Position numbers and translations under genes: made by a program. A DNA stretch of 64,000 bases from Candidatus Altiarchaeota archaeon (GTDB taxonomy: Archaea; SpSt-1190): assembly GCA_018220935.1 (NCBI GenBank), contig JAAOXU010000002.1, forward strand, positions 7,664-71,663. The letters are read 5' to 3'. The notes beneath the pieces were generated by a model. That model was not told the origin of the DNA. It ran no database searches and saw only the letters and a list, made by a program, of their open reading frames with translations. Positions 3,530 to 51,175 of the stretch are shown piece after piece (position 1 is the first letter of the stretch; every line of letters starts with the position of its first letter).

Positions 3530-3556
3530 TAGTTATTCTATAATTGTGATATTAAA

Positions 3557-9518: not shown

Positions 9519-11276
9519 CTAAATGTCTAACATACCCCATCTTTTCTTTTCTTGGCGCTTAATTTGAACTATTTCGTTAATCATTTCCTTTTCTGAGGCA
9601 TCAAGTAAATCTAGGTATTTGTTTAGTCCTTTGAATTCTTTTTCAGTTAAACTGACCCAAAGTTTATCACCTTCTTTAATTTGTCTGCCAACTGTAGGGC
9701 CATCAATACTAACAGCCAATTTTGCACCGACTTTTGCTTCCTTAACGGATTCACCTTGAACTTCAATTTGCTTAATATCCCCAACTATCATACCGTCTTC
9801 TTTCATAACTTCAACATTGTTTTTGAGGGTCCCACCAATTACTTCAACTCCAACTACTGCAGGACCACTATTTCTAAATACATATCCGGGTACAATCAAG
9901 AACTTAGAAGGTCTTGGGAGTTTGTTTAATTCATTCTTTCTCAAACTTTCTTTTTCATCTTCCACCCAAGTTTCATAGTCTTCAATAACACGATATATGA
10001 TGTCACCTGTGATTGCCTTAACTTTTTTCTCGTCACAAAGCTGGGCTTCTTGATTCTTAATATTTAATCCAATAATAACTCCGTAAAAAGGATCAATACA
10101 CTTAACTCGGTCAGCTTCCATAACATCACTTCTTGATATATCGCCAACGTGTGCGCGTCTAACTTTTATATTTCTTTCTTGGAGCATCTTAACTAAGGCT
10201 TCTAAAGTACCTAAAGTATCTGATTTAACAACAATTCCAACATCATCGGTTGAGAATTCAATACTTTGTCTTTCATCCTCAATAATTTTTACTGCTTCTT
10301 TTAGTCCTGAAGTATCAGCAACTAAAACTGAGCTCCCCGCAACTGCGTTTTCAAGTTGTGGTGCATGAATTCTTATCCCAGCTGCAGCATTAACTTCCTT
10401 AACTCTTAAAAATTTCTTTTCAGTCCTAATTTCCTTTAGAGCTTCAGGTTTCATAATACACTTAATTTTTGTGACAATGGCATTATCTGCACCACTAACA
10501 ACAATAGTATCTCCTTCCTTTAATTTTCCGTCATATAAAATGATGTCAGCAACGGCTCCAAGGCCCTTTTGTTGCTTAATTTCTAATATATTTCCTTTAG
10601 TTTTTCCTGTGAGTTCAAGTTTTTTATCAAGATATTTTTGACTTAATCCTGCTAGTAAAGCTAAAACGTCAATGATACCTTCTCCAGTAAATCCACTAGT
10701 TGGTACTACTACTACTTGATTGGTGAAGTCCTCTATTCTGTCAATTCTCTCAGCATCAAATCCTAATTCTTGAAGTTTGTTTACAATCTCATATAATTTA
10801 GTTTCAATCTTGACTGTGCCTTGTGGTGATTGTTTTAGATTATTCAAAAAACTTCCTTCCTTACTTTGGTAATCAGGGAGTATGTCTACTTTATTTGCTG
10901 CTACAATGAAAGGTACTTTGTATTGTTTTAGTATCTCAATACTCTCAATAGTTTGAGGTTTTACTCCACTCATAATATCAATTACAAGAATTGCTAAGTC
11001 AGCAACACTTCCACCCCTTTTTCTAAGATTAGTAAATGCTGCGTGTCCTGGAGTATCAATAAACAAAAGTCCAGGAATCTTTAATTCAATTTTTAGTTTG
11101 TCTAACATATTTTTACAGAATTTTTTGATATAACTTGCTGGAATTTCAGTTGCTCCAATGTGTTGAGTTATTCCGCCTGCTTCTCCTTGTTGAACGCGAG
11201 ACTGCCTAATATAATCTAAAAACTGGGTCTTACCATGATCAACATGACCCAAAACCGCTACAATAGGCTGTCTCAT
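9519..11276 (-). CDS. infB: Translation initiation factor aIF5B (IF2 homologue)
   Basis: GHVDHGKT, DTPGH and NKVD motifs plus aIF5B domains II-IV; 585 aa. Confidence 0.9.
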   Translation of the reverse strand: MRQPIVAVLGHVDHGKTQFLDYIRQSRVQQGEAGGITQHIGATEIPASYIKKFCKNMLDKLKIELKIPGLLFIDTPGHAAFTNLRKRGGSVADLAILVIDIMSGVKPQTIESIEILKQYKVPFIVAANKVDILPDYQSKEGSFLNNLKQSPQGTVKIETKLYEIVNKLQELGFDAERIDRIEDFTNQVVVVPTSGFTGEGIIDVLALLAGLSQKYLDKKLELTGKTKGNILEIKQQKGLGAVADIILYDGKLKEGDTIVVSGADNAIVTKIKCIMKPEALKEIRTEKKFLRVKEVNAAAGIRIHAPQLENAVAGSSVLVADTSGLKEAVKIIEDERQSIEFSTDDVGIVVKSDTLGTLEALVKMLQERNIKVRRAHVGDISRSDVMEADRVKCIDPFYGVIIGLNIKNQEAQLCDEKKVKAITGDIIYRVIEDYETWVEDEKESLRKNELNKLPRPSKFLIVPGYVFRNSGPAVVGVEVIGGTLKNNVEVMKEDGMIVGDIKQIEVQGESVKEAKVGAKLAVSIDGPTVGRQIKEGDKLWVSLTEKEFKGLNKYLDLLDASEKEMINEIVQIKRQEKKRWGMLDI

Positions 11277-11364: not shown

Positions 11365-14300
11365 TTATTGTGATTCGTCAACACTTTTATCCCTTAATTC
11401 TAAGTATAATTCTGCAGTATGCCACTTACTAAGCTGACCCTTTGTATCCCCAATTTGTACGTTTAGTCTCTTTCCGTTTTTTGAAATTGTATAAATTTTT
11501 CCATTAAGTTCAACTCTCCCGCCTAATTGTTTTACTTTATCAATTGCAGTTCGTGTAAGTCTTGAACCTAATTTTCTCATAGCATCATTAACTTGATAAG
11601 CCCGTCTATATGTACGTTTAATTTCATCTTGTCTTATGGGTCTCCATGCTTTCTCTTCTTGATCTCTAACTAATACGTTACCTTCCTTGTCTAGTTGATA
11701 GTGCAGTGGGCCATCTAGTGCAAGAGCCTTTCCTCCACCCCACCTCTCGTGTTCTTGAATACCTTCTTCTTCAATAGTCTTGACTATTGTATGCATCATA
11801 ATTCTGTCGTTTACTTCATCAAGTCTATCATCAGGGAGGGGATTCCAATTTTTGCCTTCCCTATAATATACGACACCATTATCTCCTAATAGATATTTTT
11901 CGTCACTACTTACTTCAAAAATTCCACCAGTTTTTACTGGGTGTACTTCAACTGAAGTACCATATCTAGTTGTTAGACCTTTGAGTTCTCTTCTTTTTTG
12001 GGTTGGACTATCAACCTCTTCATCATTTTTTGGTGTTTCCGCCCTTCTGGATGGTGTTGAACTATTTGATAATCTTCGTAATTCATCTCTATTAACGGCT
12101 AACCATCTAAACCCTTTACCGTCATTAAGTTCTCCCCATCTGTATGCCATGCCTTTTTTATCCATTGCATAGTTATCATTTCCATATTTTATGGGGTAAT
12201 AACCTCCAGGACCTTCCTCTACCTCTGCTTGATCAATTATTTGATTGATTAACTCGTTCCTATTGTCTATTACCGGGTCTGCATTTGGTGTGCTTTCTTG
12301 TTGTCCTACAACATTTAGATTAAGTCCAAGTTCCTCATTAATTCTTTCTTGTAGGTTTATTGCAGACTCTTCTGAAAAGCGTTTAGCAAACTCTTCAATC
12401 TGGCGTTTTGCTCTTTTCTTTGTTTTCCCTTGAGTGCGTTTCCAATCCTCTCTTTTGAATGGATACTTTAAGAATTTCAATACATTATCTATTGATTTTT
12501 CTTCGTCAGAAAGAACTACACCTTCAACTTCTTCTGGTTCTTGTTTTTCAGGTGGTGCTGGTTCTTTTTCATGTTCGGGTGTGGGATCGTCATCAACTCT
12601 GGGTATTTGATCTATTTTTTCTGGTAGTGCTGGCTCTTCTTTGTCTGGCGATTCTGGTATTTCGTCGTCTGGATGTGAACCCGCTTTTTCAGGAAGTAAT
12701 AACGGTGGTTTCCCTGGTGGCAATGCTAGCTGTCTGGGAGTTTTCCTTGGTGGTGCTGGTTTCTTTTCCTCTAGTGAAGCCGCTTTTTCAGGAATTAATA
12801 CTGGGTCGGGAGTTGATGATGGCCCTATTAGTCTAGGTATTCTATCTGTGGGTGGTGTTGGCGTTCTCCTAGGTGTTAACCCCCTTCGTCTGGGTGTAGG
12901 TCGCCCTCCTTGACCTTCAGGATCATCACCAATTTCTGGTAAATCACCACCGCCATCTTGCAATCCTGGGGGTCTTCCCCTACGAGTTGCGTGTGCTTGA
13001 GTTCTTGGATCATTTCCCACTTCTCTTCCTTTATGATCTGTTAAATCTTCCATTATCTCATTTCCCATCTGGACAGTTCCTCTGACAATTTGACGATCTC
13101 TATCTAAACTGTCTTGACTTACTCTGTCAATTCTTTCTTGAGTTTTTATGTGTCGCGCTTTCCCTACTCTGTGAACTTTACCAATCTGACCCCTCAAATT
13201 TTTACTGACGTTTGTGTTTTTAGTTAGCCGTTTATCCACACCAACTAACTGATCTGCAACATCATTAAAACCCATTGCTGTATCTTCTTGATTAGTTACT
13301 ACTTCTTGTTTGACTTTATCTATGCTTCTTTGAATTCTACCGTCTCTGACTTTAGAGGATTTATGAACTTTACCAATCTGACCTTGTAAATTACTTGCAA
13401 CGTTTCGTATTTTAGTTCGAGTTTTTTGTTCACCTTGAGTTCTTTTTCTAACTTCACTACTTAAAGTACCTATAATATTTGCGTCAGTTTCTGTACTTTC
13501 TCGTTCAACTCGTTCAACTTCTTGACCCAAATGAAAGAGGTCCGCATTAATGTCTTGTGGTGCTCCTTCTTGAAATAGTGCATCAATTGGATCTCTGATG
13601 TGATTGGCAGTTCCACTTTTATCAAAAGTTGCTACCCCTGTCATCTCACCATATTTAACCCACTTTTTACCTGTTGGTGTTGAGACTTCAAAATAAACTT
13701 TACCAGCTCTTGCAGCAAATTTATGGTCTACACCACCCCTTCTAAGTTTCATAGTTTGCCACACGCTTGGATTTAATACAGAAGTTGATGCAAACTCATG
13801 AGTGATTGCTATTTCTGCATTTCCTGGGGTTGTGGCGGTTGAATTATCCCACCTTCCAAATTCAAAGAATCCGTTGTTTCCTACACCAATTAGATGGTTT
13901 TTTAGTCCTCCTATCATTTCAGTTACCCCTGCTTGAGATTCCTCAAAAACTCTTAGTTTTCCACCTTCTCTTGTAACAAATCGTCTATTTCCTGATGTTG
14001 AATCTGTAATTCTTCTAACTTGAAGTTCTTTTTTAGCCCCTAACGCGTCAGTATATTCGTATTTTAAGAGCTGGCCTTCTGAGACTGTATCTACATGCGT
14101 ATTTATTTCGTTTCTAATATTATGGCTGTCTCGTCTTAAACCTGTATTTGAATCAATTACTTCACCTAGGTGCATACGAGAAATTACTTCTGGTGCTGCA
14201 GAACCTGCTGGTGGATCTAACTCAAATGATTCACTAAAATCTCTTAAATTTTGCATATTCTCAGTATTAGTTCCAGGAATTCGTGAAATCTCTTCTGTTT

Positions 14301-17300
14301 TAGTTTTCATTTGGGATAAAACTGCACTCATACCACTTCCCGTTACACTTCCTCTCTTATTAGTTCCTTCTTGACTATAATTGTAAAATGCTCTGGCTGA
14401 GGTGTCACCTTCCCCAGATGTACTAATAAAAGTCTCACCGCGTGATGACGCGGTATACATTTCTCTTCCATCTGCTTGAATTGAAATAACTTGTTTATCC
14501 CCAACTTTGACAAATGATATCTTTTTGTTTGGGTCTGTTGATCTCTCATATTCTCTTACTTTTTCTAACATTTCTTCTCTCTCTTCACTCCAGCCGTCCC
14601 CTAATGCGTCTGGGTCGTTTTCATCTATACTAAGCTTTTGTAATAAATTTTCTCTTATCTCTTCTGGGGTTCTAGTACCCATCACTAAAGATTCTTCAGT
14701 AGTTATATTCCCAGGTGAATATCCTTCAGTTTCTGCCGTTACAACTCTTTGATAAAATTCATTAAATCCACCTTCAGATAATCCAGCTACACTTCTATTT
14801 GTTACGTCTGGAGTTCTAACATTACTTACTTCCATGTTATTTTGTTTTAACTGAATTAGTACGTCTGTTATTTTTGCCGCTTCAAAAGTTCCTCTTTCTG
14901 TTATTGCTTTAACCCCTGCCCTTGTTTTTTCAAAAACTATTGGTACTGGATCTCTTGAAGCTGTGCTAGTTGCAAGCATTAATCTTACACCTTTTGATGT
15001 TGATAATGTTGTGTTTATTGACGCTGTTAGGGTGCGTAAACCTTTATCAATAACAATTCCAGATGTGTTAATGGCCGCAGCATGACTTTTAGACATTTGA
15101 GCCAGTCGTTGGAATTCCTTTTCGTCAACTTTAATTTTTCCTGAACCTGGTGCACCACTTGTTTCAATTTCTACAACACGTTTTGTTCCACCAAATAATT
15201 TTCTAAATCTACTCCCTCCTATTTTTTCTTCAAAGATTTTAACGCTAGCATTACCAAAATTAATTGTTTTTCCTGTTTGTCCTGCACGTCTCACGAAATT
15301 TGTTAGTTCTCTTCCACTAAGGTTTGAGAGTGAAACTGTTCTATTATCAAACGTAAAATCACCACTTGCTAAATGGCGGAGTGTGTTACCAATACCCCTT
15401 CCGTCTTCTGTTTTTATAGTTGTAGTTGTTTTACCATCACTTACTTCAAAAACTTCGTCTGCCGTCTTTTTGATTTGTAAAGCTCTACCTCTATTATCTA
15501 CAAACCTTATGATGTCATCATTTGCCATGATTTCTATTTGATTGATTGTACGTGAAGTATAAGTTGGTAATAGTGACACCTCATCAGTTATTGCATCAAT
15601 ATTCTTTGTAATATTATCTCTACTGAATTTTCCAGTTGTGCTGTCATAAAACTGAACTCCTGTTGCGGGTAAAAATTCCTGTGAAATTCCCGCTAAAATA
15701 TTTCGTGTGGCTGCTTTAGTTGGGTCCGCTAAAACTTTCTTTATTTCTGCCCTATCATCTGCACTTAATTTTCCTTTAGATAATGAATCAGTTAGTGGTA
15801 TGGGTGTTGCATTCCAGTTACCTGTTGTTACATCCTTTTTCATGGCAAATTGAGTGTTTCCTATTTTAAACACACTTCCATAAGTTGCGTGTTTACCCAT
15901 ATATTTTGCGCCAGTAATGCCTTTTGTTATAGTACCATCACTATTCATGCTGGTTGCAAGAAGTGAACGTGTACTTGTTGTTCCTTGTCCTGCGTGAAAA
16001 GTGTCTGCAATAAAAGCTCCTAAATTTTCAAGTGGACCGTTAAGTGTTCTAACTTCACCGGTATCCTTATTATGTACGATGTGTTGATTTCCAAAACTTG
16101 CAATTGTATAATCAGTTTTTGTTCTAGCATTGTCTTCTGCTGTGTGTGTTGCTTCACTAATTGATGTATTGGCGTCTTTTGATAACCTTGCTGCTTTAGC
16201 GGTGGCAGGAACAATAACGTCAACTGAACCTGTCGCATCTCTTCGTACCTTTGCTAACCTTCCTGTAGTCTTTTTTGTAGCAGCAATTGTATTACTTCCA
16301 ACTGCAGCGGCAGTTTCATCAACTAAGTTACTGAGCTCTTTAGACATGGCCTCAAAATCCCCACCTTTCATAAGGGCGGAAACATCGCCATCTGAAAGAT
16401 TAAATGCCGCAGCAAGATTCATCTTGTAAGCCATTGCAAATAATTTACTCGACACAAACATAGAGACTGCAACTAAACTGTGAACTACCCAGTCAAACCA
16501 TATGGTGTATAAAAACAAAACGCCAAAGAGCATAAGTGATGCTGCACCTGAAAGATCAAAAATACTAGATAGTCCTAGTGATTCAATTAACCCATTGTTA
16601 ATTGTGGTGACAATAAAAGTCATAATAAAAAGACTTCCCATCCATCTTGAGGCACTCTTAACAAAAGTATTACCTATGAAAAAGAAAATAGCCATAGTAA
16701 CCATGAATATGACAAGAAGTGCTTGCCAACCTAGTCCTGCTAAAATACCCATCGATATCAAAACGAGTGACATGAAGGCTCCTAAAATCATTATTGTACC
16801 TGTAAGGGATACTTCTTCTGGAATGAAAAATAAAAAGTAGATGTATTTTAGATATGACGGAAAAACAGTCATTACAAAAGGATACATCCTCCTACCTAAA
16901 ATTTGAATACTTCTCCAAAGCCAAACACTGAGTAACATTATACTCATAACATTTGCAATCCACGGGGGGAAGTGTATTATTGGATATAAAATTATTTCTA
17001 AAATACCACCAAATGTACCTAAATTACTCCCGCCTATAAAATTGGTAATTAAATCACTAAGAAGTGTGAAAATATCAAATGCAGATAATACATTAAAAAC
17101 AGTCATTAAGCTAACTATGATGAGAAGAAATGGTAAAAAATCCCTAAACCAACTAAAATAATCTATGAGTAAGTAAAGACCAACCATATCAAACTTATTT
17201 ACTTCATTTTTTATCGCACCTGAAACTTCCTTCATAACGGCTGAATATTCGTCTTCTAATTCTGCCCTCCTTCCTGTGTCTGCTTCTTTATAGTCTTCAA

Positions 17301-17439
17301 GAATTCGGTTTAATTTACTCTCAAATGCCCCTAGTGTATCAAGACCGGACAACCACTCAGTCCACATTTGACCTAGTGAAAAAGCCTTTAGCTCTTCATA
17401 TGAAAATGGTTTACTGTCAATTTGTTCTCTTTCAGCCAT
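11365..17439 (-). CDS. Giant (2,024 aa) membrane-anchored protein of unknown function
   Basis: Longest ORF in the window. An ATG start sits 3 nt after the upstream stop, with GGAGG about 10 nt upstream. Layout: ~85-aa N-terminal segment, ~9-10 hydrophobic helices (aa ~85-340), then ~1,680 aa of hydrophilic sequence containing a 64-aa internal duplication, a Pro/Arg/Glu-rich linker and four C-terminal ~50-aa repeats. No cysteine seen in the translation. No known domain recognised. Confidence 0.8.
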   Translation of the reverse strand: MAEREQIDSKPFSYEELKAFSLGQMWTEWLSGLDTLGAFESKLNRILEDYKEADTGRRAELEDEYSAVMKEVSGAIKNEVNKFDMVGLYLLIDYFSWFRDFLPFLLIIVSLMTVFNVLSAFDIFTLLSDLITNFIGGSNLGTFGGILEIILYPIIHFPPWIANVMSIMLLSVWLWRSIQILGRRMYPFVMTVFPSYLKYIYFLFFIPEEVSLTGTIMILGAFMSLVLISMGILAGLGWQALLVIFMVTMAIFFFIGNTFVKSASRWMGSLFIMTFIVTTINNGLIESLGLSSIFDLSGAASLMLFGVLFLYTIWFDWVVHSLVAVSMFVSSKLFAMAYKMNLAAAFNLSDGDVSALMKGGDFEAMSKELSNLVDETAAAVGSNTIAATKKTTGRLAKVRRDATGSVDVIVPATAKAARLSKDANTSISEATHTAEDNARTKTDYTIASFGNQHIVHNKDTGEVRTLNGPLENLGAFIADTFHAGQGTTSTRSLLATSMNSDGTITKGITGAKYMGKHATYGSVFKIGNTQFAMKKDVTTGNWNATPIPLTDSLSKGKLSADDRAEIKKVLADPTKAATRNILAGISQEFLPATGVQFYDSTTGKFSRDNITKNIDAITDEVSLLPTYTSRTINQIEIMANDDIIRFVDNRGRALQIKKTADEVFEVSDGKTTTTIKTEDGRGIGNTLRHLASGDFTFDNRTVSLSNLSGRELTNFVRRAGQTGKTINFGNASVKIFEEKIGGSRFRKLFGGTKRVVEIETSGAPGSGKIKVDEKEFQRLAQMSKSHAAAINTSGIVIDKGLRTLTASINTTLSTSKGVRLMLATSTASRDPVPIVFEKTRAGVKAITERGTFEAAKITDVLIQLKQNNMEVSNVRTPDVTNRSVAGLSEGGFNEFYQRVVTAETEGYSPGNITTEESLVMGTRTPEEIRENLLQKLSIDENDPDALGDGWSEEREEMLEKVREYERSTDPNKKISFVKVGDKQVISIQADGREMYTASSRGETFISTSGEGDTSARAFYNYSQEGTNKRGSVTGSGMSAVLSQMKTKTEEISRIPGTNTENMQNLRDFSESFELDPPAGSAAPEVISRMHLGEVIDSNTGLRRDSHNIRNEINTHVDTVSEGQLLKYEYTDALGAKKELQVRRITDSTSGNRRFVTREGGKLRVFEESQAGVTEMIGGLKNHLIGVGNNGFFEFGRWDNSTATTPGNAEIAITHEFASTSVLNPSVWQTMKLRRGGVDHKFAARAGKVYFEVSTPTGKKWVKYGEMTGVATFDKSGTANHIRDPIDALFQEGAPQDINADLFHLGQEVERVERESTETDANIIGTLSSEVRKRTQGEQKTRTKIRNVASNLQGQIGKVHKSSKVRDGRIQRSIDKVKQEVVTNQEDTAMGFNDVADQLVGVDKRLTKNTNVSKNLRGQIGKVHRVGKARHIKTQERIDRVSQDSLDRDRQIVRGTVQMGNEIMEDLTDHKGREVGNDPRTQAHATRRGRPPGLQDGGGDLPEIGDDPEGQGGRPTPRRRGLTPRRTPTPPTDRIPRLIGPSSTPDPVLIPEKAASLEEKKPAPPRKTPRQLALPPGKPPLLLPEKAGSHPDDEIPESPDKEEPALPEKIDQIPRVDDDPTPEHEKEPAPPEKQEPEEVEGVVLSDEEKSIDNVLKFLKYPFKREDWKRTQGKTKKRAKRQIEEFAKRFSEESAINLQERINEELGLNLNVVGQQESTPNADPVIDNRNELINQIIDQAEVEEGPGGYYPIKYGNDNYAMDKKGMAYRWGELNDGKGFRWLAVNRDELRRLSNSSTPSRRAETPKNDEEVDSPTQKRRELKGLTTRYGTSVEVHPVKTGGIFEVSSDEKYLLGDNGVVYYREGKNWNPLPDDRLDEVNDRIMMHTIVKTIEEEGIQEHERWGGGKALALDGPLHYQLDKEGNVLVRDQEEKAWRPIRQDEIKRTYRRAYQVNDAMRKLGSRLTRTAIDKVKQLGGRVELNGKIYTISKNGKRLNVQIGDTKGQLSKWHTAELYLELRDKSVDESQ
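11386..12225 (-). repeat. Four degenerate ~50-aa repeats at the C-terminus of the giant protein
   Basis: GGYYPIKYGNDNYAMDKKGMAYRW..DELRRL / GGIFEVSSDEKYLLGDNGVVYY..W..DDRLDEV / GGGKALALDGPLHYQLDKEGNVLV..W..QDEIKRT / GGRVELNGKIYTISKNGKRLNV..W..AELYLEL. Confidence 0.6.
12520..12990 (-). repeat. Pro/Arg/Glu-rich low-complexity linker (~157 aa) in the giant protein
   Basis: RRGRPPG..RPTPRRRGLTPRRTPTPPTDRIP.. followed by four (L/I/P)PEK motifs. It is locally GC-richer than its surroundings and generates spurious ORFs in other frames. Confidence 0.8.
13110..13410 (-). repeat. Internal duplication with ~64-aa spacing in the giant protein
   Basis: NLQGQIGKVHKSSKVRDGRIQRSIDKVKQE vs NLRGQIGKVHRVGKARHIKTQERIDRVSQD. 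The identical 20-mer TGAACTTTACCAATCTGACC occurs at 13172-13191 and 13363-13382. Confidence 0.8.
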
Positions 17440-17442
17440 TTT

Positions 17443-18696
17443 TTAACTTCCTCCCCTCTTTTGCCAACGTTTCCAAAATTTCCAGACTGATTCTTCATCT
17501 GCAGTGCCTTCGATGTCGTCATACTTAATTTTGTTTGGATCTGTGGCTTTTATCACGATTACAAATAATGCAAGAAACATAATCAGAGCAACCATTATTT
17601 GTGATTCTGGAATATTAGTTGTAACATAAGTTTCACTTGTTTCATTATACTCTCTAATTCCAGTCGGGAAACCAAAGAGTTGTGTCCACATAAGATATCC
17701 TATGACCTCAGTTGTTTCAAGTTCAAGTACTAATTCATCCGTTCCTTCGGGGACTAATGATTCTGCAACTCCGGTCACAAAGTCTCCTGTTGGACCTGCT
17801 GATGAGCGTAAGTTTCCAAATAATTCACCTAACATTGGATTCCCCACACTTATTGTATCTTGAAACTCTGGTGTGGTTTGCATGAAAATAAAGTAAGCTG
17901 GCATTGTAACTGCAATTAAAACCATTAAAATTATGACGATAAGAAAAATTACGTTGGTCCCGTCTTTTATGGCGTCCATTGGACTTGAATCTGGTCCACC
18001 AATCTTTTTTATTCTAGCACCCATTAGTAAGAAAAGCCCGATCATCAGGGATTTTATGACTACTAAATAGACTCCCGTTGCAATAACATCCATCTCTGGA
18101 TACGGAGCACCATAACCTGGTATAATGAAACTGAAAACATTACCACTAAGTATCATTGGGATTAGAAAATCAACAATTAAGAATGCAAAAAATGCACCCC
18201 AAATATTAAATTCAATAAAATTCAGCTCTTTTCCACTTCGCCTCAAAAATACGAGTAGGAGAATAACTTCTATTGCACAAATCATTAAAAGTAATCCTGT
18301 GGGGTTCTCAAGACCTAAAAGGTTCCAACCAAAGCCAGGATCTTGGAGCATAAAAATTAAGCTTAAAGTTAGTAGTGAGAGAGAATATCCCATAACCATT
18401 ACCCCTGCTGTTGCTCTGACTTCTGCAGCTTGTTTATTTGCGTTCTTTTTAGACCTTGCAGTGGACAAAATTGCAGGGAGTAACATGATAATACCCATAA
18501 AAAGAAAAATATCAACAAAGAGGGGTTTTTCTACTCCGGCACTCATTGATTCGAGTAAAAAAATAAATCCAAATCCCAAAAATGCAGTACCAAAAATCAA
18601 GTAGGTTACGCTGCTTTTTACACCTTTCTTAATGAGACCTCTAACTTTTTTAAACAGCGTCCCTATCCCACTAAAAACAGATCCTCCAACCATCAC
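17443..18696 (-). CDS. Polytopic membrane protein (417 aa), unknown family, first gene of the operon with the giant protein
   Basis: About 9-10 hydrophobic helices plus an acidic/basic C-terminal tail. The start is GTG 18696 or ATG 18693. The stop is 3 nt before the giant ORF. Confidence 0.6.
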   Translation of the reverse strand: MMVGGSVFSGIGTLFKKVRGLIKKGVKSSVTYLIFGTAFLGFGFIFLLESMSAGVEKPLFVDIFLFMGIIMLLPAILSTARSKKNANKQAAEVRATAGVMVMGYSLSLLTLSLIFMLQDPGFGWNLLGLENPTGLLLMICAIEVILLLVFLRRSGKELNFIEFNIWGAFFAFLIVDFLIPMILSGNVFSFIIPGYGAPYPEMDVIATGVYLVVIKSLMIGLFLLMGARIKKIGGPDSSPMDAIKDGTNVIFLIVIILMVLIAVTMPAYFIFMQTTPEFQDTISVGNPMLGELFGNLRSSAGPTGDFVTGVAESLVPEGTDELVLELETTEVIGYLMWTQLFGFPTGIREYNETSETYVTTNIPESQIMVALIMFLALFVIVIKATDPNKIKYDDIEGTADEESVWKFWKRWQKRGGS

Positions 18697-18738
18697 TTAT
18701 ACCTCTAAAAGCATTAAAGCAACCAGCTTATTACCTTT

Positions 18739-19806
18739 TTGATGAACAAGGAAGCTCCGTTGCGCATTGGAATTATCCTGATGATTATACTCTTTTCAGT
18801 TATGATTGCGCTTCAACGGGGCAGTGATAGTGATAATATTACGTATGAGGAGCGAGTAAAAGAAGATATTTTTGGTTCAGAAACTAAGGAAGGTTTTCTC
18901 CCCGCTCTACCTTTTGATATACGAGCTGTTATGAGTAAAGCAGGGCTTTCAAACAAAACGTTTTGTCCTTTCATTAATCCTTATATGTCTCAATTATTTG
19001 CTGCAGGGAGCTTAGAAGTGTCTAAAAATTATGGTAATCCATTGTATCATGCTTTACTTTATTCAATGAATAAAGAGCCACAACTCTGTGCGGATGATTG
19101 TAATAGGGCTCACCCTCCAATCGTTGTTGACTGTGAACCTGATGATAGGGCTTGTTTTGGGATATATCGAGCAGAAGACCAGATGCGTCAAGAAAACTTT
19201 CAAACTTGTGTTAATGACTGTATAGGAACTGAAGCAACTTGTGAGACTGCAATTTTAGCTGAATATGATTATGAGAATGAAAACTATGTGCTCTCTTGTG
19301 GTGACTATTCTCGAACTCTTGAAATTGATGAACTTGCAGATGGATTAAACCGATCAATTGCGTATTTAGGTTCAATTGGTCTTTCTGACTATGGGCTTTC
19401 GGTAAATGATAAGATTGCGGGTTGGCAATGTTTTGTTTTCTTTGGTATAATTCCATTTTTTGCTATGTACTTTTTCTTAATGGATATAATGGGTTTTACT
19501 ATGTTCTCACGAAAACTTAAAATTCTCCTTACTATTTTTGGATCTGTTTTAGCTATAATGTCTGGTACTTTTGCAAAATTCATCTGGCAACTTTCCTACA
19601 TTGCAGCTTTAGGTGTTCAAGGAACTTTTCTTTTAGTTATGGTATTTTTGAGTTTCATATCCCTAATCATGAGTTGGATTGGTTCAATTGGGGCTGCTAG
19701 TGGAGATGCTTCAAGAAGGTCTGCTGAACTCAGTTTAGGTATGGCAGAAAAATACACTTTTCAGGCCCTTGGCAGGGCCGTTCAACACGATAACAAGAAG
19801 AATTAG
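18739..19806 (+). CDS. Membrane protein with a Cys-rich ectodomain and conserved C-terminal TM module (paralogue 1)
   Basis: N-terminal signal anchor, an ectodomain of ~200 aa with ~11 Cys (FCPFINPY.., LCADDCNRAH..DCEPDDRAC..), then WQCFVFFGIIPFF and 3-4 TM helices. The likely real start is ATG 18742. Confidence 0.6.
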   Translation: MMNKEAPLRIGIILMIILFSVMIALQRGSDSDNITYEERVKEDIFGSETKEGFLPALPFDIRAVMSKAGLSNKTFCPFINPYMSQLFAAGSLEVSKNYGNPLYHALLYSMNKEPQLCADDCNRAHPPIVVDCEPDDRACFGIYRAEDQMRQENFQTCVNDCIGTEATCETAILAEYDYENENYVLSCGDYSRTLEIDELADGLNRSIAYLGSIGLSDYGLSVNDKIAGWQCFVFFGIIPFFAMYFFLMDIMGFTMFSRKLKILLTIFGSVLAIMSGTFAKFIWQLSYIAALGVQGTFLLVMVFLSFISLIMSWIGSIGAASGDASRRSAELSLGMAEKYTFQALGRAVQHDNKKN

Positions 19807-19841
19807 CAATGCATATAACTTAGTAATGACATGCCCTTCTA

Positions 19842-20798
19842 ATGAGAGGCAACTCAAAAGACACCATTTGGCTTTTTATGGGAGTTTTACTCCTCTTCAT
19901 GATTATGGCGTCTTTTTCTCCTGGTTCTCAGATTGGCAGTGCCTTTTTGAACTTTAGGGGGTCTATTGAAAAAGTGTTTGGTGGGGGCGTTGGATATTGT
20001 CCTTTCATCAATCCCTATGCTATGGCAATCTATTCAGCAGGGGAACTCTACATTACAGGGGGTCATGCGTTGTGTGATCCTGTTGAGTATACTTTAAATA
20101 AAGAGGATGCAGCAAACTTCCCTGCGGCTAATTTCCCACATGGTGATGCTACGTGTCAAAAAGATTATTCGATTAAAATTGGGTCGGGGGGACAATTTGT
20201 TGAAGATGGAGTTATTGCGGAAGGAGATTTTGATGAACTAGATAATCTACTTCTTGTAACTTGTATTGATTGTAATACTGTTGGTGTAGATACTGATACT
20301 GTGCTTCGTAGTGATATATTTTTCCAACACTTTGCTGATTACCAGATTGATCCAGCATTAGAGGGCTTAATTGAACCAGATAACAAAATTGCAATCCAGC
20401 TTCTAACAGAAAAGAGGCCAGCATGGCAATGCTTTTTCATCTTTGGTTTACTACCTTTCTTTGTAACATTTTACTTACTAAATGATATTTTGATGTTTGC
20501 ATATCTTAGGACAAACACGAGAAGACTAATTGCAATCTTTGCATCCTTACTTGCAATCCTAACGGGCTCATTTGCAAATATTCTAGTTGCAGTAGCAAGC
20601 TTTGTTGGACTATCAGTTGGTCAAAGCTTCTTAATGGCAATATTTTCACTAGCAATCCTATCAGTATTCTTAGGACAATTAACAGTTACAGCCGGAGTTG
20701 CTAAGACTACAGTTGATGCAGTTCAAAAGGCAGTTACTGGTGCACTTGTCCTAACTAATGTTGCTGGAGCAACTAATCCTGGTGCGAAAAAGGAGTAG
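19842..20798 (+). CDS. Membrane protein with a Cys-rich ectodomain and conserved C-terminal TM module (paralogue 2)
   Basis: Aligns by eye with the upstream ORF: YCPFINPY.., WQCFFIFGLLPFF.., NDILMF..R..IAIFASLLAILTGSFANI. Confidence 0.6.
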   Translation: MRGNSKDTIWLFMGVLLLFMIMASFSPGSQIGSAFLNFRGSIEKVFGGGVGYCPFINPYAMAIYSAGELYITGGHALCDPVEYTLNKEDAANFPAANFPHGDATCQKDYSIKIGSGGQFVEDGVIAEGDFDELDNLLLVTCIDCNTVGVDTDTVLRSDIFFQHFADYQIDPALEGLIEPDNKIAIQLLTEKRPAWQCFFIFGLLPFFVTFYLLNDILMFAYLRTNTRRLIAIFASLLAILTGSFANILVAVASFVGLSVGQSFLMAIFSLAILSVFLGQLTVTAGVAKTTVDAVQKAVTGALVLTNVAGATNPGAKKE

Positions 20799-20805
20799 TT
20801 AAGTT

Positions 20806-21648
20806 ATGAGGTGGGTTCTTTTATTTTTGGTTTTGGGTATGACTTACACTGGTGCGTATGCCCAAGGTTCATATGAGGAGGATGACACTATTAACCTTGA
20901 ATTGGGTGGACTTGATTTGAGTGAAATGCTAACGTCTTTGACCAATTCTTTAAAAAATGTTAATCTTATCCCTGATTTATCTTCATCTTGTAAGGAGCAC
21001 GAAGCTTGTGGTTCTGATGAATGTCCACCTAAAGTTTGTGAAATAAATAGTCAGTGTTCTAGTGATTCAACTTGTGTTGGTAATAGTTGTTTAATTAGTG
21101 ACTGCAACCCACTTAGTCAAGACAAGACTCGTGCATATTTTATGATACTTCTTTTGTTGTTTATGGCCTTTAGTATTGTAATTGGATTATCAAATATGCC
21201 TTCATCAATTTTTTCATTTTTCATTACGAGTTTTCTTTTCAATAATATTCCATCACTTTTTGAAGTAGCAGCCGCACAAGGATTATTTGAGTATGTATTC
21301 TCTGCACTTTTCATATTTTTATGGACTGATTATATCTTACAGTACATGTGGGCAATAAGTCCAATGACTCGTTTGTTCTTAGAGGCCTCAGTTACTTTGA
21401 TTGCATTATTTTTCATGAGCATTGGGGCAGTTTACGAGAGAATTGCCTGGATGCTTGAATTTTTCTTAGGAACAGTTGGATTTATTATGTTCATGTTCTT
21501 CATGTTAGGAATGCACTTCTTTAATGCCTTTATCAGTTTGACTAACGTTAAGGCTGCAAGAAATTTAAGGAAGGGTGGAAGTGTTGCAGTGCAAAACGTT
21601 GATAAGGATGTGGAGCGAAAAGTAATTGCGGAAGGGGGAGATAGGTAA
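20806..21648 (+). CDS. Membrane protein with signal peptide, a 9-Cys knot-like segment and a related TM module (distant paralogue 3)
   Basis: Signal peptide MRWVLLFLVLGMTYTGAYAQG. SSSCKEHEACGSDECPPKVCEINSQCSSDSTCVGNSCLISDC, then ~5 TM helices including TDYILQYMW..TRLF..LIALFFMSIG. AAGGAG lies ~12 nt upstream of the ATG. Confidence 0.6.
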   Translation: MRWVLLFLVLGMTYTGAYAQGSYEEDDTINLELGGLDLSEMLTSLTNSLKNVNLIPDLSSSCKEHEACGSDECPPKVCEINSQCSSDSTCVGNSCLISDCNPLSQDKTRAYFMILLLLFMAFSIVIGLSNMPSSIFSFFITSFLFNNIPSLFEVAAAQGLFEYVFSALFIFLWTDYILQYMWAISPMTRLFLEASVTLIALFFMSIGAVYERIAWMLEFFLGTVGFIMFMFFMLGMHFFNAFISLTNVKAARNLRKGGSVAVQNVDKDVERKVIAEGGDR

Positions 21649-22847
21649 TGGATTTAACTGCATTAATTCAAGCGGCTCTTGCATTTTTTTATCTTATGCT
21701 TACAATTGAAACTTTAGTATCCTCAACTAAGAACTTTTTAGCTAAACAACTCCCCTTTGAAGGGAGAATCCTGTTTTTGGCCTATTCTCACATGGTCTAT
21801 TTTGGTGGGTTTAGTTCAATGGGCCTTCGTATGTTTGAGAATATTTCAATCCTTGATTTTTTACTAAATCGACCTATTGTAATTGCATATGACTGGATAA
21901 ACGCATTTACTGTAAGTTTTTTTGGTCTCTCTTTTAAGACCAATCCATTTTTCATGTTCACATATTTAATTCCAATATTTTTTGTGTATAATTTTGTCGA
22001 ATACTGGTTTAGATATGGATTCTCAGACAAAAGAATCTCAAAATTAATTTCTTTTGCTGCTGTAATCTTGTATATTTCTTCAAATAATTCTTTAGGTTTA
22101 ATTGACCAATTTACTACCCCCTATGCGGGTCTTTTTGCGGCCCTAATTGCCGGGGGTGGTATTTTTGGTATGATAAACATGCTGATAAGTCTAATTAATG
22201 TAATTCCCATTTTTAATCTCACACCCCTTCAAAATTCAATTTCGTCAATAATTTCATACACACTTCCAATGGTTGGTGTTATTCAAACTGATAGTGGTGC
22301 TGAGGCTTCATGGTTATTGAATATTTTTGGTCCAGATTTAGCCCCTTTCATTGCTCTTATTGCAATAGCTGCCGTCTTAGCCGTTGTTATTTTTGTTGTT
22401 TATACAATGTATAAATACTTAATTTGGAAAATGACTTCAGATGCTGCTGAGGGTAAGTTACTAAAAACTTTACAATCCAGTGGAACATATATTTCTCTTT
22501 CATATATTATCTTTGGTGCTGGGTTTACACTAATGCTTTTGTTACTGAATGTAATTGGACTTGGTAAGGGATTTACTCTTGATACCAATGCGTTAATTCA
22601 GATACCGTTGGGAACTTTTAGTTTTGTTTTAAGTTTTATTTTAATTGCATTATTTTCAGAAGTCTTAGTTTTTGCTGCGATGCTTGTACTCTTTAACAAT
22701 ATGAAGTATGTGTTTAAGGGACGAGCTAGTTCTGGTGGTGGGGGTGGCAGTGGAGCAAACCCTACTGAAACAACTGAGGCTTCCGGACCAACACAAGAAG
22801 AAATTGATGCTGATCGAGAAAGATTAATTGGTATTGAAACTGATTAA
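21648..22847 (+). CDS. Polytopic membrane protein (399 aa), unknown family, Gly-rich acidic tail
   Basis: About 9 hydrophobic helices and a C-terminal SSGGGGGSGANPTETTEASGPTQEEIDADRERL. The start overlaps the upstream stop (TAATG), with GGGGGAG upstream. Confidence 0.6.
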   Translation: MDLTALIQAALAFFYLMLTIETLVSSTKNFLAKQLPFEGRILFLAYSHMVYFGGFSSMGLRMFENISILDFLLNRPIVIAYDWINAFTVSFFGLSFKTNPFFMFTYLIPIFFVYNFVEYWFRYGFSDKRISKLISFAAVILYISSNNSLGLIDQFTTPYAGLFAALIAGGGIFGMINMLISLINVIPIFNLTPLQNSISSIISYTLPMVGVIQTDSGAEASWLLNIFGPDLAPFIALIAIAAVLAVVIFVVYTMYKYLIWKMTSDAAEGKLLKTLQSSGTYISLSYIIFGAGFTLMLLLLNVIGLGKGFTLDTNALIQIPLGTFSFVLSFILIALFSEVLVFAAMLVLFNNMKYVFKGRASSGGGGGSGANPTETTEASGPTQEEIDADRERLIGIETD

Positions 22848-22883
22848 AGATAATCGTTTTATACTCATTAATGGTATTCCTCT

Positions 22884-23852
22884 GTGCTTAAATTTGTAAA
22901 TAGGGAAGCAGAACTTTGGCAGCTAAAGAATATTTTAGGTTCGGCGCCAAATTCAGTTTTATTTGTATATGGTCCAAAATCATCTGGAAAAAGTACTTTG
23001 ATGATGAAAATTTCTAAGATGTACCCTGGTGATATTTTGTTTTATGATTTTAGGGCACGAAGTCCTTCTGAAGTTCACCGCGTTCTTGCTAATCAAAAAC
23101 CTAGCTTTGGAACTCGTATGAGAAATTACCTTAGAAGAAAAGTTCAAAAAGACAATATCTATGATGGCATTGAACTTACTGAAGCTCAATTACAACAAAT
23201 GGCTAGAGGTAAGGTTGACGCTTTTGCACCCTTAATTAATAAACTAAAAAAATACAAGAATCCAGTTTTAGTACTTGATGAGATCCAAAACCTAGTACAC
23301 TCTGGGTTAGATGGTCAAGAGCTAGCACAACTTATGAATTTTTTAATTACAATTACAAAACGTCTTCACTTAGCACACGTAATTATTGTAACTAGTGATT
23401 GTCTTTTCATTGATGAGATTGCAAAGAAAGCTGCAATGGAGGAGGCTGCTGAATACCTATATGTTGGTGATTTACCCAAAAGCAGTGTTATTGAGTGGAT
23501 GAAAGACGAAGGTATGAGTCAGGCTATGGCAGCAAAGACGTACAGTTTAGTTGGTGGTAGGCCATATGATTTGTGGGTAATAGTCAACCATTTTCGTGCA
23601 ACTAATGATATTAATGTCATTGAAACTATGGTTAGACGAAAATCTTCAAGGGTAAAATTGACTCTAAAGTCTGTTGGTGCCCAAGAACTGCGGTTTATTC
23701 GAAAACTTGCAAAGGGTCCGCTCTCAATTACAGATATATCAAAAAAAGTTATGGAATGGGCAATTGATAACGAAATTGCCTTTTTTGATCCTGTTAATGG
23801 GGAAGTTTATGCTTTGAGTAAAAGTATGCAGGAAGCCTTGAAAAAAGTATAG
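22884..23852 (+). CDS. Archaeal-type P-loop ATPase (PF01637/ATPase_2-like)
   Basis: Starts with FVNREAEL, typical of this family. Walker A GPKSSGKS, Walker B VLVLDEIQ, and a C-terminal wHTH-like region. It has its own TATA-like TTTTATAC at 22857-22864, ~24 nt before the GTG. Confidence 0.65.
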   Translation: MLKFVNREAELWQLKNILGSAPNSVLFVYGPKSSGKSTLMMKISKMYPGDILFYDFRARSPSEVHRVLANQKPSFGTRMRNYLRRKVQKDNIYDGIELTEAQLQQMARGKVDAFAPLINKLKKYKNPVLVLDEIQNLVHSGLDGQELAQLMNFLITITKRLHLAHVIIVTSDCLFIDEIAKKAAMEEAAEYLYVGDLPKSSVIEWMKDEGMSQAMAAKTYSLVGGRPYDLWVIVNHFRATNDINVIETMVRRKSSRVKLTLKSVGAQELRFIRKLAKGPLSITDISKKVMEWAIDNEIAFFDPVNGEVYALSKSMQEALKKV

Positions 23853-23896: not shown

Positions 23897-25486
23897 GTGG
23901 AAAAAACTGTAATTACTGCCGCCTTACCATATGCAAATGGTGAGTTACACTTAGGTCACATCAAAAGTACCTATTTGCCTGCGGATATTTACACAAAATT
24001 TCTAAAATTTATTGGTTTACCTGCTATTTACTTATGTGCAAATGATGAGCACGGCACCCCTATTTTACTAAAATCTGATGATGAAAAGATAGCTCCCGAA
24101 GAATACATTAAACAATGGAGAACTAGACACTTAAACGATCTTAATTTTGTTTTGATTGATTTTGATAAATTTTATGCAACACACAGTCCTGAACACCTCA
24201 GTTTAACTCAAGAAATTTATAATAAACTAAAAAAAGCAGGTCACATAAAACGAGGAAAGGTAAAACAATACTGGGATTCAATTGAGAATACGCCACTGCC
24301 CGATAGATATGTAATAGGAACCTGTCCGCACTGTGATGCACTTGAGCAATATGGTGATCAATGTGAAAAATGCGCGAAAGTCTTTGTGGGTGGGGAACTA
24401 AAAAACCCAGTTGCAAAGAGAACTGGTAATAAAGCTGAAGTTCGTGAAGGTGAACATGTATTTTTTAAATTAAGTACTTTTAGTGATAAACTAAAAAAAT
24501 TTGTTGAAGAAATTGAGGCCCCACAAGATGTCAAGAATTTTGTTTTAGGCTGGGTAAAAGATGGCTTACAGGACTGGGATATTGAACGAGATATTAAATG
24601 GGGTATAGATGTTCCAGATTCAAATGGCGTCTTTTATGTTTGGTTTGATGCGCCAATTGGGTATTATAGTACACTAAAAAAATGGTGTATTGATAATAAT
24701 GAGAATTTCAAAGACTGGTGGAACGGCAAGGTTGTTCACTTTATTGGTAAAGATATAGCGTATCATCATTTCTTATTCTGGCCTGCTATGCTAATGGGTG
24801 CGGGTCTAAACGTGCCGAGTTCGATTCCAACGCGAGGTCACCTCACATTAGAGAACAAAAAATTTTCTAAGAGCCGTAATTGGTATATCTCAATAAAAGA
24901 TTGGAAAGATAATGGACTTGATCCAGAATACTTGAGGTTTTACATGACATATACTACGCCTCTAGGTTCAAGGGATAGTGATTTTTCAACTACTGAATTC
25001 CAAAAAACAGTAAATGAAGAGCTCGTAAATAACTTTGGTAACTTACTTCAAAGACTCTTAAAATTTGTAGAGCGCTTTGACTCTAAGCTTACAGAAAAGC
25101 CAGGAGAAGTATTTGATAAAGTACAAGCTTCACTAACTTTATTTGAAGAGTTAATGAAGGCTGGTGAATTATCAAAAGCACTACAACTCGTATCAAAACA
25201 CACTCACAAACTTAATGTATATTTTCAAGGGAAAGAACCTTGGAAAAACGAGAGTGAAGCCCCAAGTGTAATTGCAAATATTGCAAGTTCATTAAAATTA
25301 ATTAACATGATGCTCTACCCCTTCTTACCGAAAAAAACTAAGCAAGTTGCAGAACTACTAAATGTGAAATTAGAGTGGGATAATTCACCTCTACCAATTG
25401 GTCACAAACTAAAACCTGCAAAAATTCTTTTCCCAAAAGTTGATGATACAGTCTCAAAAAAACTAAAATCAATATACAACGCATAA
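23897..25486 (+). CDS. metG: Methionyl-tRNA synthetase (core enzyme, no C-terminal appended domain)
   Basis: HIGH-type ANGELHLGH, KMSKS-type KFSKS, and a zinc knuckle CPHC..CEKC. Confidence 0.9.
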   Translation: MEKTVITAALPYANGELHLGHIKSTYLPADIYTKFLKFIGLPAIYLCANDEHGTPILLKSDDEKIAPEEYIKQWRTRHLNDLNFVLIDFDKFYATHSPEHLSLTQEIYNKLKKAGHIKRGKVKQYWDSIENTPLPDRYVIGTCPHCDALEQYGDQCEKCAKVFVGGELKNPVAKRTGNKAEVREGEHVFFKLSTFSDKLKKFVEEIEAPQDVKNFVLGWVKDGLQDWDIERDIKWGIDVPDSNGVFYVWFDAPIGYYSTLKKWCIDNNENFKDWWNGKVVHFIGKDIAYHHFLFWPAMLMGAGLNVPSSIPTRGHLTLENKKFSKSRNWYISIKDWKDNGLDPEYLRFYMTYTTPLGSRDSDFSTTEFQKTVNEELVNNFGNLLQRLLKFVERFDSKLTEKPGEVFDKVQASLTLFEELMKAGELSKALQLVSKHTHKLNVYFQGKEPWKNESEAPSVIANIASSLKLINMMLYPFLPKKTKQVAELLNVKLEWDNSPLPIGHKLKPAKILFPKVDDTVSKKLKSIYNA

Positions 25487-25930: not shown

Positions 25931-26085
25931 TCCCGCGGGCCGGATTTGAACCGGCAACAAGACGGTTTCTGATCGAGGGCTACTTTTCTCACCCCGCTAA
26001 GCGAGGGATTATCCCGTATTTCGGGTCCGTATGAGCATGCTCATCGGCTACAGCCGCCTGCTCTACCAGGTTGAGCTACCGCGGG
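25931..26085 (-). tRNA. tRNA-Tyr(GUA): tRNA-Tyr(GUA) with an 81-nt intron at the canonical 37/38 position
   Basis: Manual cloverleaf: CCCGCGG-UA-GCUC-AACCUGGUA-GAGC-A-GGCGG-CUGUAG[intron]A-CCGUC-UUGUU-GCCGG-UUCAAAU-CCGGC-CCGCGGG-A. Exons are 26048-26085 and 25931-25966; the intron is 25967-26047. It has the C1:G72 pair expected for archaeal tRNA-Tyr, and the anticodon loop CUGUAGA matches archaeal tRNA-Tyr. No CCA is encoded. The loop CUG can pair with the intron CAG, leaving an AA|A bulge at the 3' junction. Confidence 0.8.
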
Positions 26086-29862: not shown

Positions 29863-30000
29863 GTTAAACTTTGTTTTAGGAGTATTTATCTTGTTCTTAA
29901 TGTGGTGACGAAGTAATTTACGCTAATTGGCGATATATTACTGAAATTAACAAGTTAAAAAACGACATAGGCTTTTCTACTGCCTAATCGGTCTTTATGT

Positions 30001-51102: not shown

Positions 51103-51175
51103 AATAAATCAAGTATTGGGGTGTAAATAAGCGTTTTACACAAGTTTAGTCAAAAAACTGTATAAATTATACGTT

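Follow-up and report, generated by a model that had tools for sequence, protein, structure and literature searches.

A conserved orphan module of six membrane proteins and an ATPase in Undinarchaeota

The window analysed here is a 64,000-nucleotide stretch of DNA from an archaeon deposited as Candidatus Altiarchaeota (SpSt-1190; NCBI GenBank assembly GCA_018220935.1, contig JAAOXU010000002.1, forward-strand positions 7,664 to 71,663), and our subject is a cluster of seven genes covering 12.5 kb of it, which encodes six membrane proteins and one ATPase. According to the open reading frame (ORF) map the genes, to which we gave letters, are arranged divergently. On the minus strand lie F (17443-18696), coding for a polytopic protein of 417 aa, and then G (11365-17439), whose 2024-aa product is a giant membrane protein with a predicted cytoplasmic helix at its N-terminus, a conserved core of six transmembrane (TM) segments and a Cys-free tail of about 1,680 aa. 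The plus strand carries four further membrane-protein genes, A (18739-19806, 355 aa as called), B (19842-20798, 318 aa), C (20806-21648, 280 aa) and D (21648-22847, 399 aa), followed by E (22884-23852), which encodes a P-loop ATPase of 322 aa. The cluster is flanked by the genes for aIF5B (9519-11276, minus strand) and MetRS (23897-25486, plus strand), both identified through the Pfam families of their orthologues, and base composition is uniform over the whole window. That the cluster genes are real follows from the existence of orthologues at 35-86% identity and from the conservation of gene order in several species.

The genes are closely packed. F and G are separated by 3 nt, with GGAGG about 10 nt 5' of the G ATG; AAGGAG lies ahead of C and GGGGGAG ahead of D, and the start codon of D shares one base with the stop codon of C. 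The intergenic region between the divergent genes F and A measures 42 nt. This short divergent promoter region (18697-18741) contains ATTAAA at 18713-18718, 23 nt 5' of the A ATG, and its ...cttattacctttttgATG stretch is kept in relatives. Translation of A probably begins at the ATG at 18742, which would make the protein 354 aa long: relatives keep the sequence …cctttttgATG, and a database protein 98% identical to A has the same length of 354 aa. Cys residues are distributed unevenly, with 10 in A, 6 in B, 8 in C, 1 in F and none in D or G. A first-pass annotation, made from the sequence alone, had described these ORFs and their spacing, the Shine-Dalgarno-like motifs, the Cys pattern and the aIF5B and MetRS flanks, all of which were reproduced by the ORF map and by inspection of the sequence.

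A scan of GTDB with one genome per species recovered the B family in 8 of 185,579 species, the records of which are titled Candidatus Undinarchaeota, Altiarchaeota (DPANNHV bins), 'archaeon' or Nanobdellati, and the named database matches of a profile built from A and B are metagenome-assembled genomes labelled 'Candidatus Altiarchaeota'. In the NCBI records the same module appears under 'Candidatus Altiarchaeota' in L009, L012 and L013 and under 'Candidatus Undinarchaeota' or 'Nanobdellati' in L010, L011 and L014. The Altiarchaeota labels on these module-bearing records look like outdated taxonomy, and the source organism belongs to the Undinarchaeota, a DPANN phylum with genomes of approximately 0.4-0.7 Mb and a predicted dependence on partners (PMC7414124). 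The suggestion that the DNA came from a reduced archaeon was thus correct.

The order A-B-C-D-E is retained in all related contigs of sufficient length (L001/L002, L003/L004, L005, L006/L007, L008, L010, L013 and L016), and L015, a contig of only 4 kb, shows A-B-C-D before it ends. G is divergent from A in L001, L005, L006 and L014, and an aIF5B-type GTPase is encoded beyond G in the window, L001, L006 and L014. The 3' neighbour of E varies: it is a plus-strand MetRS gene in the window, for example, a minus-strand MetRS-like gene in L006 and RrnaAD in L003/L004. A conserved order within differing flanks points to an ancestral locus in which aIF5B, G and F were read in one direction and A-B-C-D-E and MetRS in the other, and to a module that stayed intact while its neighbours moved. 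The best reading is that the module is vertically inherited and specific to the Undinarchaeota. In L006 an extra protein of 1129 aa is encoded between G and aIF5B (504-3893, minus strand; present in GCA_027002005.1 and a related contig); it lacks TM segments and Pfam matches, contains 20 Cys, has a lysine plus arginine (K+R) content of 17% and may be a lineage-specific addition to the module.

Further evidence comes from the minus-strand pair. F and G form a single polypeptide in L005 (1899 aa), L006 (1689 aa), L014 (2031 aa) and P0033 (2065 aa), which provides independent evidence that the two work together. Residues 12-763 of the window G align to residues 372-1116 of the L005 fusion, and residues 249-344 of the window F to its residues 211-309; P0032, P0033 and L014 share this arrangement. 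The split state is common to the window and L001 and, as judged by alignment of the N-terminus, probably P0030, and is therefore not a sequencing error. The tight, conserved linkage of the genes makes a single co-functional module likely, as had been proposed from the compact operon structure, and both the A-B-C-D-E order and the divergent G do recur in related genomes. The components differ in their rates of evolution: between the window and its closest relative, L001, where housekeeping proteins are 65-84% identical, identity is 86% for E, 72% for B, 59% for C, 48% for both A and D and about 35% for F and G.

A and B are paralogues (BLASTP 2e-23), and the clean separation of their orthologue groups indicates that the duplication predates the sampled divergence. 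Each has four TM segments. In A an acidic, Cys-rich ectodomain of about 200 aa is placed between TM1 and TM2, while B combines a hypervariable ectodomain insert, 76-137 residues in length, with a strongly conserved TM module, such that mean pairwise identity across the family is 74% in the TM module and 67% in the CPFINPY region as against 30% in the central insert. Invariant in the alignment of B are C53 (C53-PFINPY), C105, W195-Q-C197, P205, D215 and G242. The alignment of C describes a protein with a cleavable Sec-type signal peptide (…AYAQ/G), a short variable ectodomain, approximately five TM segments and a basic C-terminal tail. Three Cys-rich ectodomains had been reported for the cluster; those of A and B are conserved as such, whereas the window shares the Cys-rich insert of C with its closest relative alone. 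A relationship between the TM modules of C and of A/B is possible, but their alignment by hhalign (E 0.016, probability 2.8%) is not significant. D is polytopic and free of Cys, and the part of it conserved in the alignment is the N-terminal 160 or so residues (…FVYNFVEYWF.YGF.D.RIS…). The cores of D, F and G are mutually unrelated by hhalign (probability below 1%).

G orthologues range from 1689 to 2065 aa, and the window protein can be divided into several regions, all on the minus strand. The N-terminal 95 residues (17155-17439) form an acidic helical segment, which is helical in an AlphaFold2 (AF2) model and is predicted to be cytoplasmic since it follows the cytoplasmic C-terminus of the F part in the fused relatives, a location of the F C-terminus that was itself read manually from the sequence. 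Residues 96-340 (16420-17154) constitute the conserved polytopic core, with the motif SVWLWRSIQILGRRMYPFV...FIPEEVSL and the invariant residues W175, R184, P194, Y201, F205, E208, G235, G268, H320 and S326. The membrane-proximal part of the tail, residues 341-810 (15010-16419), is weakly conserved; it includes a small beta domain at about 425-467, directly followed by the invariant residues G468, G474 and F476. Residues 1336-1429 (13153-13434) hold two copies of a basic repeat of about 64 aa (…NL(Q/R)GQIGKVH…), which in a self-comparison of 1336-1365 with 1400-1429 score 82 against at most 44 in shuffled sequences. We also considered an array of repeated domains for the tail, and rejected it: this single two-copy repeat is all that stands out. 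By composition, residues 1501-1620 (12580-12939) are an acidic, proline-rich linker (24% P), and residues 1621-2024 (11368-12579) are a highly charged C-terminal region that looks disordered on a charge-hydropathy plot and aligns weakly even to the closest relative. On this plot the stretch 346-845 appears foldable, and most of the remaining sequence disordered. Across the G family only the N-terminal helix, the TM core and some 150-450 residues beyond it can be aligned; the rest of the tail has kept its length class (950-1,680 aa) and its composition, and not its sequence.

The topology of these proteins was assessed by hand from the positive-inside rule, K+R content, Cys and hydropathy. Alignment-averaged hydropathy places hydrophobic segments of G at approximately 100-120, 160-178, 213-235, 238-258, 267-285 and 298-330, and clusters of K/R at 176-184, 261-265 and 332-340. 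A model with six TM segments and both termini inside is preferred, as only there do all three clusters lie inside, with the conserved stretch 186-211 (YPFV…FIPEEVSL) at the cytoplasmic face. F, by manual reading, has eight TM helices with both termini inside and an acidic outside loop of about 95 aa (270-365; K+R 2.1%), an arrangement compatible with the fused F-G forms.

Composition gives the same picture. K+R content in outside segments is 4.2% in a 1087-aa signal-peptide protein encoded elsewhere in the window, about 8% in LamG proteins of L003, 7.7-9.7% in other signal-peptide proteins and 2.8-9.5% in the ectodomains of A, B and C, and the range in soluble cytoplasmic proteins is 10.7-21.4%. 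The tail of G stands at 14.7% (12-19% in its individual segments), and six orthologue tails have 16-21.6%. Cys accounts for 0-0.2% of G tails (seven of seven orthologues) as against 0.8-4.5% of A and B ectodomains, and for 9.4% of the C ectodomain of the window. N-X-S/T sequons number 15 in G, or 0.74 per 100 aa, close to the approximately 0.8 expected from tail composition, as against 5.2 in the secreted protein of 1087 aa. Taken together, these features suggest that the tail of some 1,680 aa is probably cytoplasmic. A cytoplasmic tail would not form an outward attachment fibre, and an extracellular adhesin was likewise rejected on grounds of composition and topology.

E is a member of Pfam ATPase_2 (PF01637), with 108.1 bits against a cut-off of 33.2 over profile positions 1-222 of 225, and its translation has an intact Walker A motif (GPKSSGKST, residues 30-38) and Walker B motif (VLVLDE, at about residues 128-133). 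The protein is taken to be cytoplasmic. A C-terminal MJ1010-like winged-helix region (PF21690) is matched weakly in the window protein (E-value 0.14) and is also matched, there as an ordinary hit, in the L003/L004 orthologue. We found no established function for the ATPase_2 family in the literature. The first-pass annotation had assigned E a TATA box of its own, and this element (TTTTATAC, 22857-22864, plus strand, 19 nt before the E GTG) is conserved in eight of eight loci (window, L001, L004, L005, L006, L008, L010 and L013), together with a GTG start and its distance of about 20 nt from the box, which reads TTTTATAC in five and is a close variant in the other three. Such a box at a fixed distance from the GTG is typical of an archaeal promoter and points to a leaderless mRNA that starts at or near this codon. 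With its own promoter E would be a separate transcription unit, yet it has stayed beside D while MetRS moved, which suggests a functional tie. The window also encodes, at 3557-4549 on the minus strand, an Orc1/Cdc6-type AAA+ protein (AAA_22 plus Cdc6 lid) with a sub-threshold match to ATPase_2, and this match places the family of E close to Orc-like ATPases.

The six membrane proteins were searched against a wide range of collections. None of A, B, C, D, F and G matches a Pfam or NCBIfam family; PADLOC and PHROGs contain no match to A, B, C, D or F; searches of PDB sequences with single proteins returned noise only, as did profile searches of the PDB with five family alignments (SNAPIN, a designed claudin, PilE1), of which those of C, D, F and G are shallow at 5-7 sequences. 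An AF2 model of B built from 27 sequences reached a mean predicted local distance difference test score (pLDDT) of 75, and its best Foldseek matches were at E 1.7 in the PDB and 0.2 in BFVD, so that a claudin-, tetraspanin- or fusexin-like fold for the A/B family finds no support. The corresponding model of the G core (5 sequences, pLDDT 59) is of low confidence; Foldseek found nothing for it in the PDB, and the model is too weak for that negative to weigh much.

Exact-sequence look-ups of window proteins returned no matching record, and a word-index search with full-length G returned only G itself, low-complexity words having swamped the candidates. Exhaustive HMMER comparison of G residues 1-1200 with 1.84 billion cluster representatives retrieved five proteins, all of the G family; the profile of A and B retrieved 28 proteins in 5.8 billion, and a metagenome scan with the D profile five loci only. 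The module has no match in IMG/VR, PLSDB or phage records. For the membrane proteins the only signal in PADLOC or PHROGs is an alignment of G residues 1304-1441 with the tail of the ZorA profile (positions 345-477; 14.7 bits, E 0.002), and E has only weak P-loop-level matches in PADLOC, for example to mad8 (E 7e-6). Literature searches on PF01637 and on giant membrane proteins of DPANN archaea gave nothing relevant to the cluster. No description of it was found, and it does not figure in the main text and available supplements of the Undinarchaeota paper (PMC7414124). Judged by these searches, the six membrane proteins appear to have no detectable relative outside the clade, in keeping with the orphan status first proposed for them, and homology to unrelated characterised families, which would have spoken for a different view, was not found.

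Several known systems could in principle account for a membrane-protein operon with an ATPase. Among the seven proteins and the window ORFs of at least 300 aa there is no VirB4/TrbE or HerA/FtsK-type motor, no PilB/FlaI or CedB (HerA-like) ATPase, no PilC/FlaJ platform and no prepilin peptidase, the sole ATPase of the module being that of the ATPase_2 family; motors of a type IV secretion system (T4SS), a pilus or the Ced system, integrases and relaxases are also lacking from the seven proteins, the motor scan again extending to the window ORFs of at least 300 aa. T4SS, Ced and pilus were accordingly rejected, their defining motors and platforms not having been detected. A mobile element or provirus was rejected in view of the uniform composition, the syntenic core locus and the absence of IMG/VR, PLSDB or phage matches. 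Library scans and the core context thus uphold the earlier statement that the cluster is not a recognisable T4SS, pilus, Ced-like or mobile module. An ABC or other catalogued transporter was set aside because E scores only 17.2 bits with ABC_tran, against a cut-off of 25, and no permease family is matched by A-D, F or G. A catalogued defence system (PADLOC-DB) was dropped too, A-D and F having no matches and E only those at P-loop level.

The VirB6/TrbL proteins deserve separate mention, because a fold of this type had been suggested for G, F and D. Like them, G has a multi-TM N-terminal domain with a very long hydrophilic extension and is encoded together with small membrane proteins. However, unlike a VirB6/TrbL T4SS, the module has no VirB4/VirD4/HerA ATPase, relaxase or pilin, and its locus is not mobile. 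No Pfam or NCBIfam match to VirB6/TrbL was found, PDB profile searches of G, D and F came back empty, and the fold-level Foldseek test of the G core was weak (pLDDT 59); the suggestion therefore stands unsupported. Zorya offers a second architectural parallel: in ZorA/ZorB, as in the MotA/ExbB stators, a polytopic core carries an exceptionally long cytoplasmic tail and small partners have domains outside. The module resembles Zorya in its membrane core with a long cytoplasmic tail, in partner domains placed outside and in the 14.7-bit match between G and the ZorA tail. It differs in that G has no MotA_ExbB domain, that Pfam and PADLOC reveal no OmpA- or peptidoglycan-binding partner like ZorB or MotB, that the match falls in a charged tail region and that the genomic context is core rather than a defence island, so that membership is unsupported.

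Among ATPases, E is a full-length member of the ATPase_2/MJ1010-like archaeal family with intact Walker motifs, and its linkage to a membrane-protein operon is a trait of this clade that is not known as general for ATPase_2. Two further systems serve only as leads. The SPEARE proteins of Nanohaloarchaeum are giant host-interaction proteins of a DPANN archaeon, extracellular and with recognisable domains, and the attachment organelle of Mycoplasma is built on cytoskeletal scaffold proteins with acidic proline-rich regions. Like G, both are very large proteins and occupy a considerable fraction of a tiny genome, and the Mycoplasma scaffolds also resemble the G tail in having an acidic proline-rich segment and in apparently lying as an internal scaffold beneath surface proteins. 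In contrast to the SPEARE proteins, the G tail has no domains and a predicted cytoplasmic location. No sequence or domain similarity to either group was detected. As far as sequence comparison can tell, no known kind fits the module, which appears to be new in kind.

We consider it highly probable that the seven genes build one co-functional membrane complex. Our favoured account, which is tentative and held with rather less than even confidence, is that this is a heteromeric membrane complex specific to the Undinarchaeota and, at a guess, a platform for surface contact. According to this account the cell surface would carry acidic, K/R-poor modules stabilised by disulfides and contributed by A, B, C and, through its large loop, F; these modules would be hypervariable in their middle parts, both in sequence and in length. 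D, F, the six-TM core of G and the strongly conserved three-TM modules of A and B would form the membrane core. The cytoplasmic face would consist of strongly conserved loops, such as G residues 176-211 and the YLRTNTRR loop of B, the enormous G tail and perhaps E; the tail, with its 950-1,680 charged, Cys-free, fast-evolving and partly disordered residues, could act as a scaffold or tether, and E may act at this conserved face in assembly, regulation or energising. That such a platform links the interior of the cell to the recognition of a partner or host surface, and is not a secretion or pilus machine, is possible and, in our estimate, doubtful. A more far-reaching form of the idea is that the module is a novel phylum-specific transmembrane nanomachine, unrelated to known secretion, pilus or transport systems and used for host contact, cytoplasmic bridging or signalling, in which the hypervariable surface modules would recognise the partner cell and the D/F/G core would couple recognition to the tether of about 1,700 residues and to an AAA+/STAND-like ATPase; this we regard as somewhat unlikely.

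Several considerations weigh against this account. Homology points to no particular function of the module. Its topologies come from manual reading and hydropathy and not from a trained predictor, and the AF2 model of the G core is of low confidence, as noted above. F and G may evolve fast because of low constraint or disorder and not through an arms race, and E, being transcribed separately, could be a mere syntenic neighbour. Moreover, lineages of the Undinarchaeota are predicted to have different partners (PMC7414124), and the presence of the module among translation genes in such lineages would fit a housekeeping function equally well.

A housekeeping module of the envelope or of cell biology, concerned with S-layer or membrane anchoring, shape, division, or tethering of the nucleoid or ribosomes, and with the G tail as its internal scaffold, is indeed one of two unlikely alternatives to which we give the same weight. 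It would account for a single-copy, syntenic locus embedded in the core genome between aIF5B and MetRS over deep divergence, for the conservation of E and B at housekeeping level and for a cytoplasmic tail with basic and acidic stretches and K/R/H-rich repeats, but core machinery does not typically have hypervariable surface inserts or diverge as fast as F and G do, and Pfam and NCBIfam reveal no similarity to division, cytoskeletal or S-layer-anchoring proteins. The other is a transporter or channel peculiar to the lineage, carrying for instance lipids, ions or products of nucleic-acid breakdown through a conduit of A-D, F and G that E would energise or gate. The approximately 30-35 TM helices predicted for the module, partly by manual reading, are in line with this, as are conserved polar or charged residues in TM segments or at their ends (D215 of B; E208, D316 and H320 of G; D70 of D), the 74% mean pairwise identity of the B TM module, and the incomplete lipid synthesis of the Undinarchaeales, which must import many compounds (PMC7414124). 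No Pfam, NCBIfam or PDB transporter family is matched, however, the ABC_tran score shows that E is not a transport-type ATPase, and a cytoplasmic tail of 1,000-1,700 aa combined with hypervariable ectodomains would be unusual in a transporter.

It is improbable that there is no system at all, that is, that unrelated orphan genes were kept together by inherited synteny, with E independent of the rest. Although E has its own promoter and long-range synteny occurs in small DPANN genomes, such a view does not readily explain why F and G are fused in four lineages, why the A/B tandem pair of paralogues is retained everywhere, why neighbouring genes are overlapping or nearly contiguous and have ribosome-binding motifs, or why A-B-C-D-E stay together while the flanks change. 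Least of all do we favour a conflict or defence module, either a STAND/AAA+-like ATPase with membrane effectors or a Zorya-like sensor with a long cytoplasmic tail, which we judge very improbable. The resemblance of ATPase_2 proteins to STAND/Orc-like NTPases and the PADLOC matches of G to the ZorA tail and of E to mad8 speak for it, but those matches are far below family level and lie in coiled or charged tail, the MotA/ExbB channel domain and a ZorB-like partner are missing, the core-genome position is stable, unlike that of a defence island, and viral, plasmid and phage collections do not contain the module.

Other features of the window were noted in passing. The 1087-aa protein used above for comparison is encoded at 266-3529 on the minus strand; it has a Sec signal peptide (…MTPAFA/N), no Pfam match, 56 N-X-S/T sequons and 12 Cys, and is likely to be the major surface (S-layer-type) glycoprotein of the organism. 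A ribose-1,5-bisphosphate isomerase-like gene (29014-29862), the L001 orthologue of which matches Pfam IF-2B, lies close to a form III-like RuBisCO gene (31066-32457), and the same neighbourhood is found in L001 and L005; the pair (29014-32457) belongs to the nucleoside/AMP salvage pathway via isomerase and RuBisCO that has been described for Undinarchaeota (PMC7414124). At 45672-52372 on the minus strand a run of orphan genes for proteins of 543, 330, 145, 504 and 398 aa surrounds a MoxR-type AAA_3 ATPase (47300-48220, E 5e-66). The 543-, 330-, 504- and 398-aa proteins have no Pfam match, the 145-aa protein having been left out of that scan; those of 330 and 504 aa are K/R-poor and have a signal-peptide-like start, and the run may be another surface-related module. 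Finally, an Rfam tRNA match of 47 bits over 155 nt (25931-26085, minus strand), which ARAGORN does not report, is probably an intron-containing archaeal tRNA.

Undinarchaeota, whose genomes measure approximately 0.6 Mb, are presumed to rely on other organisms as partners. We know of no cultured member of the phylum and of no molecular apparatus for this dependence. The Undinarchaeota paper (PMC7414124) offers only LamG or Ig adhesin candidates. The module takes up about 2% of a genome of this size, with G among the largest proteins of the cell, and a giant cytoplasmic tail on a membrane core is an architecture with few parallels. It thus provides a concrete, testable candidate for a cell-envelope function that defines the lineage. 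If the contact or bridging interpretation were true, the seven genes would represent a new type of machinery at the interface between cells; if it were false, they would still comprise a compact set of six new, co-functioning membrane-protein families.

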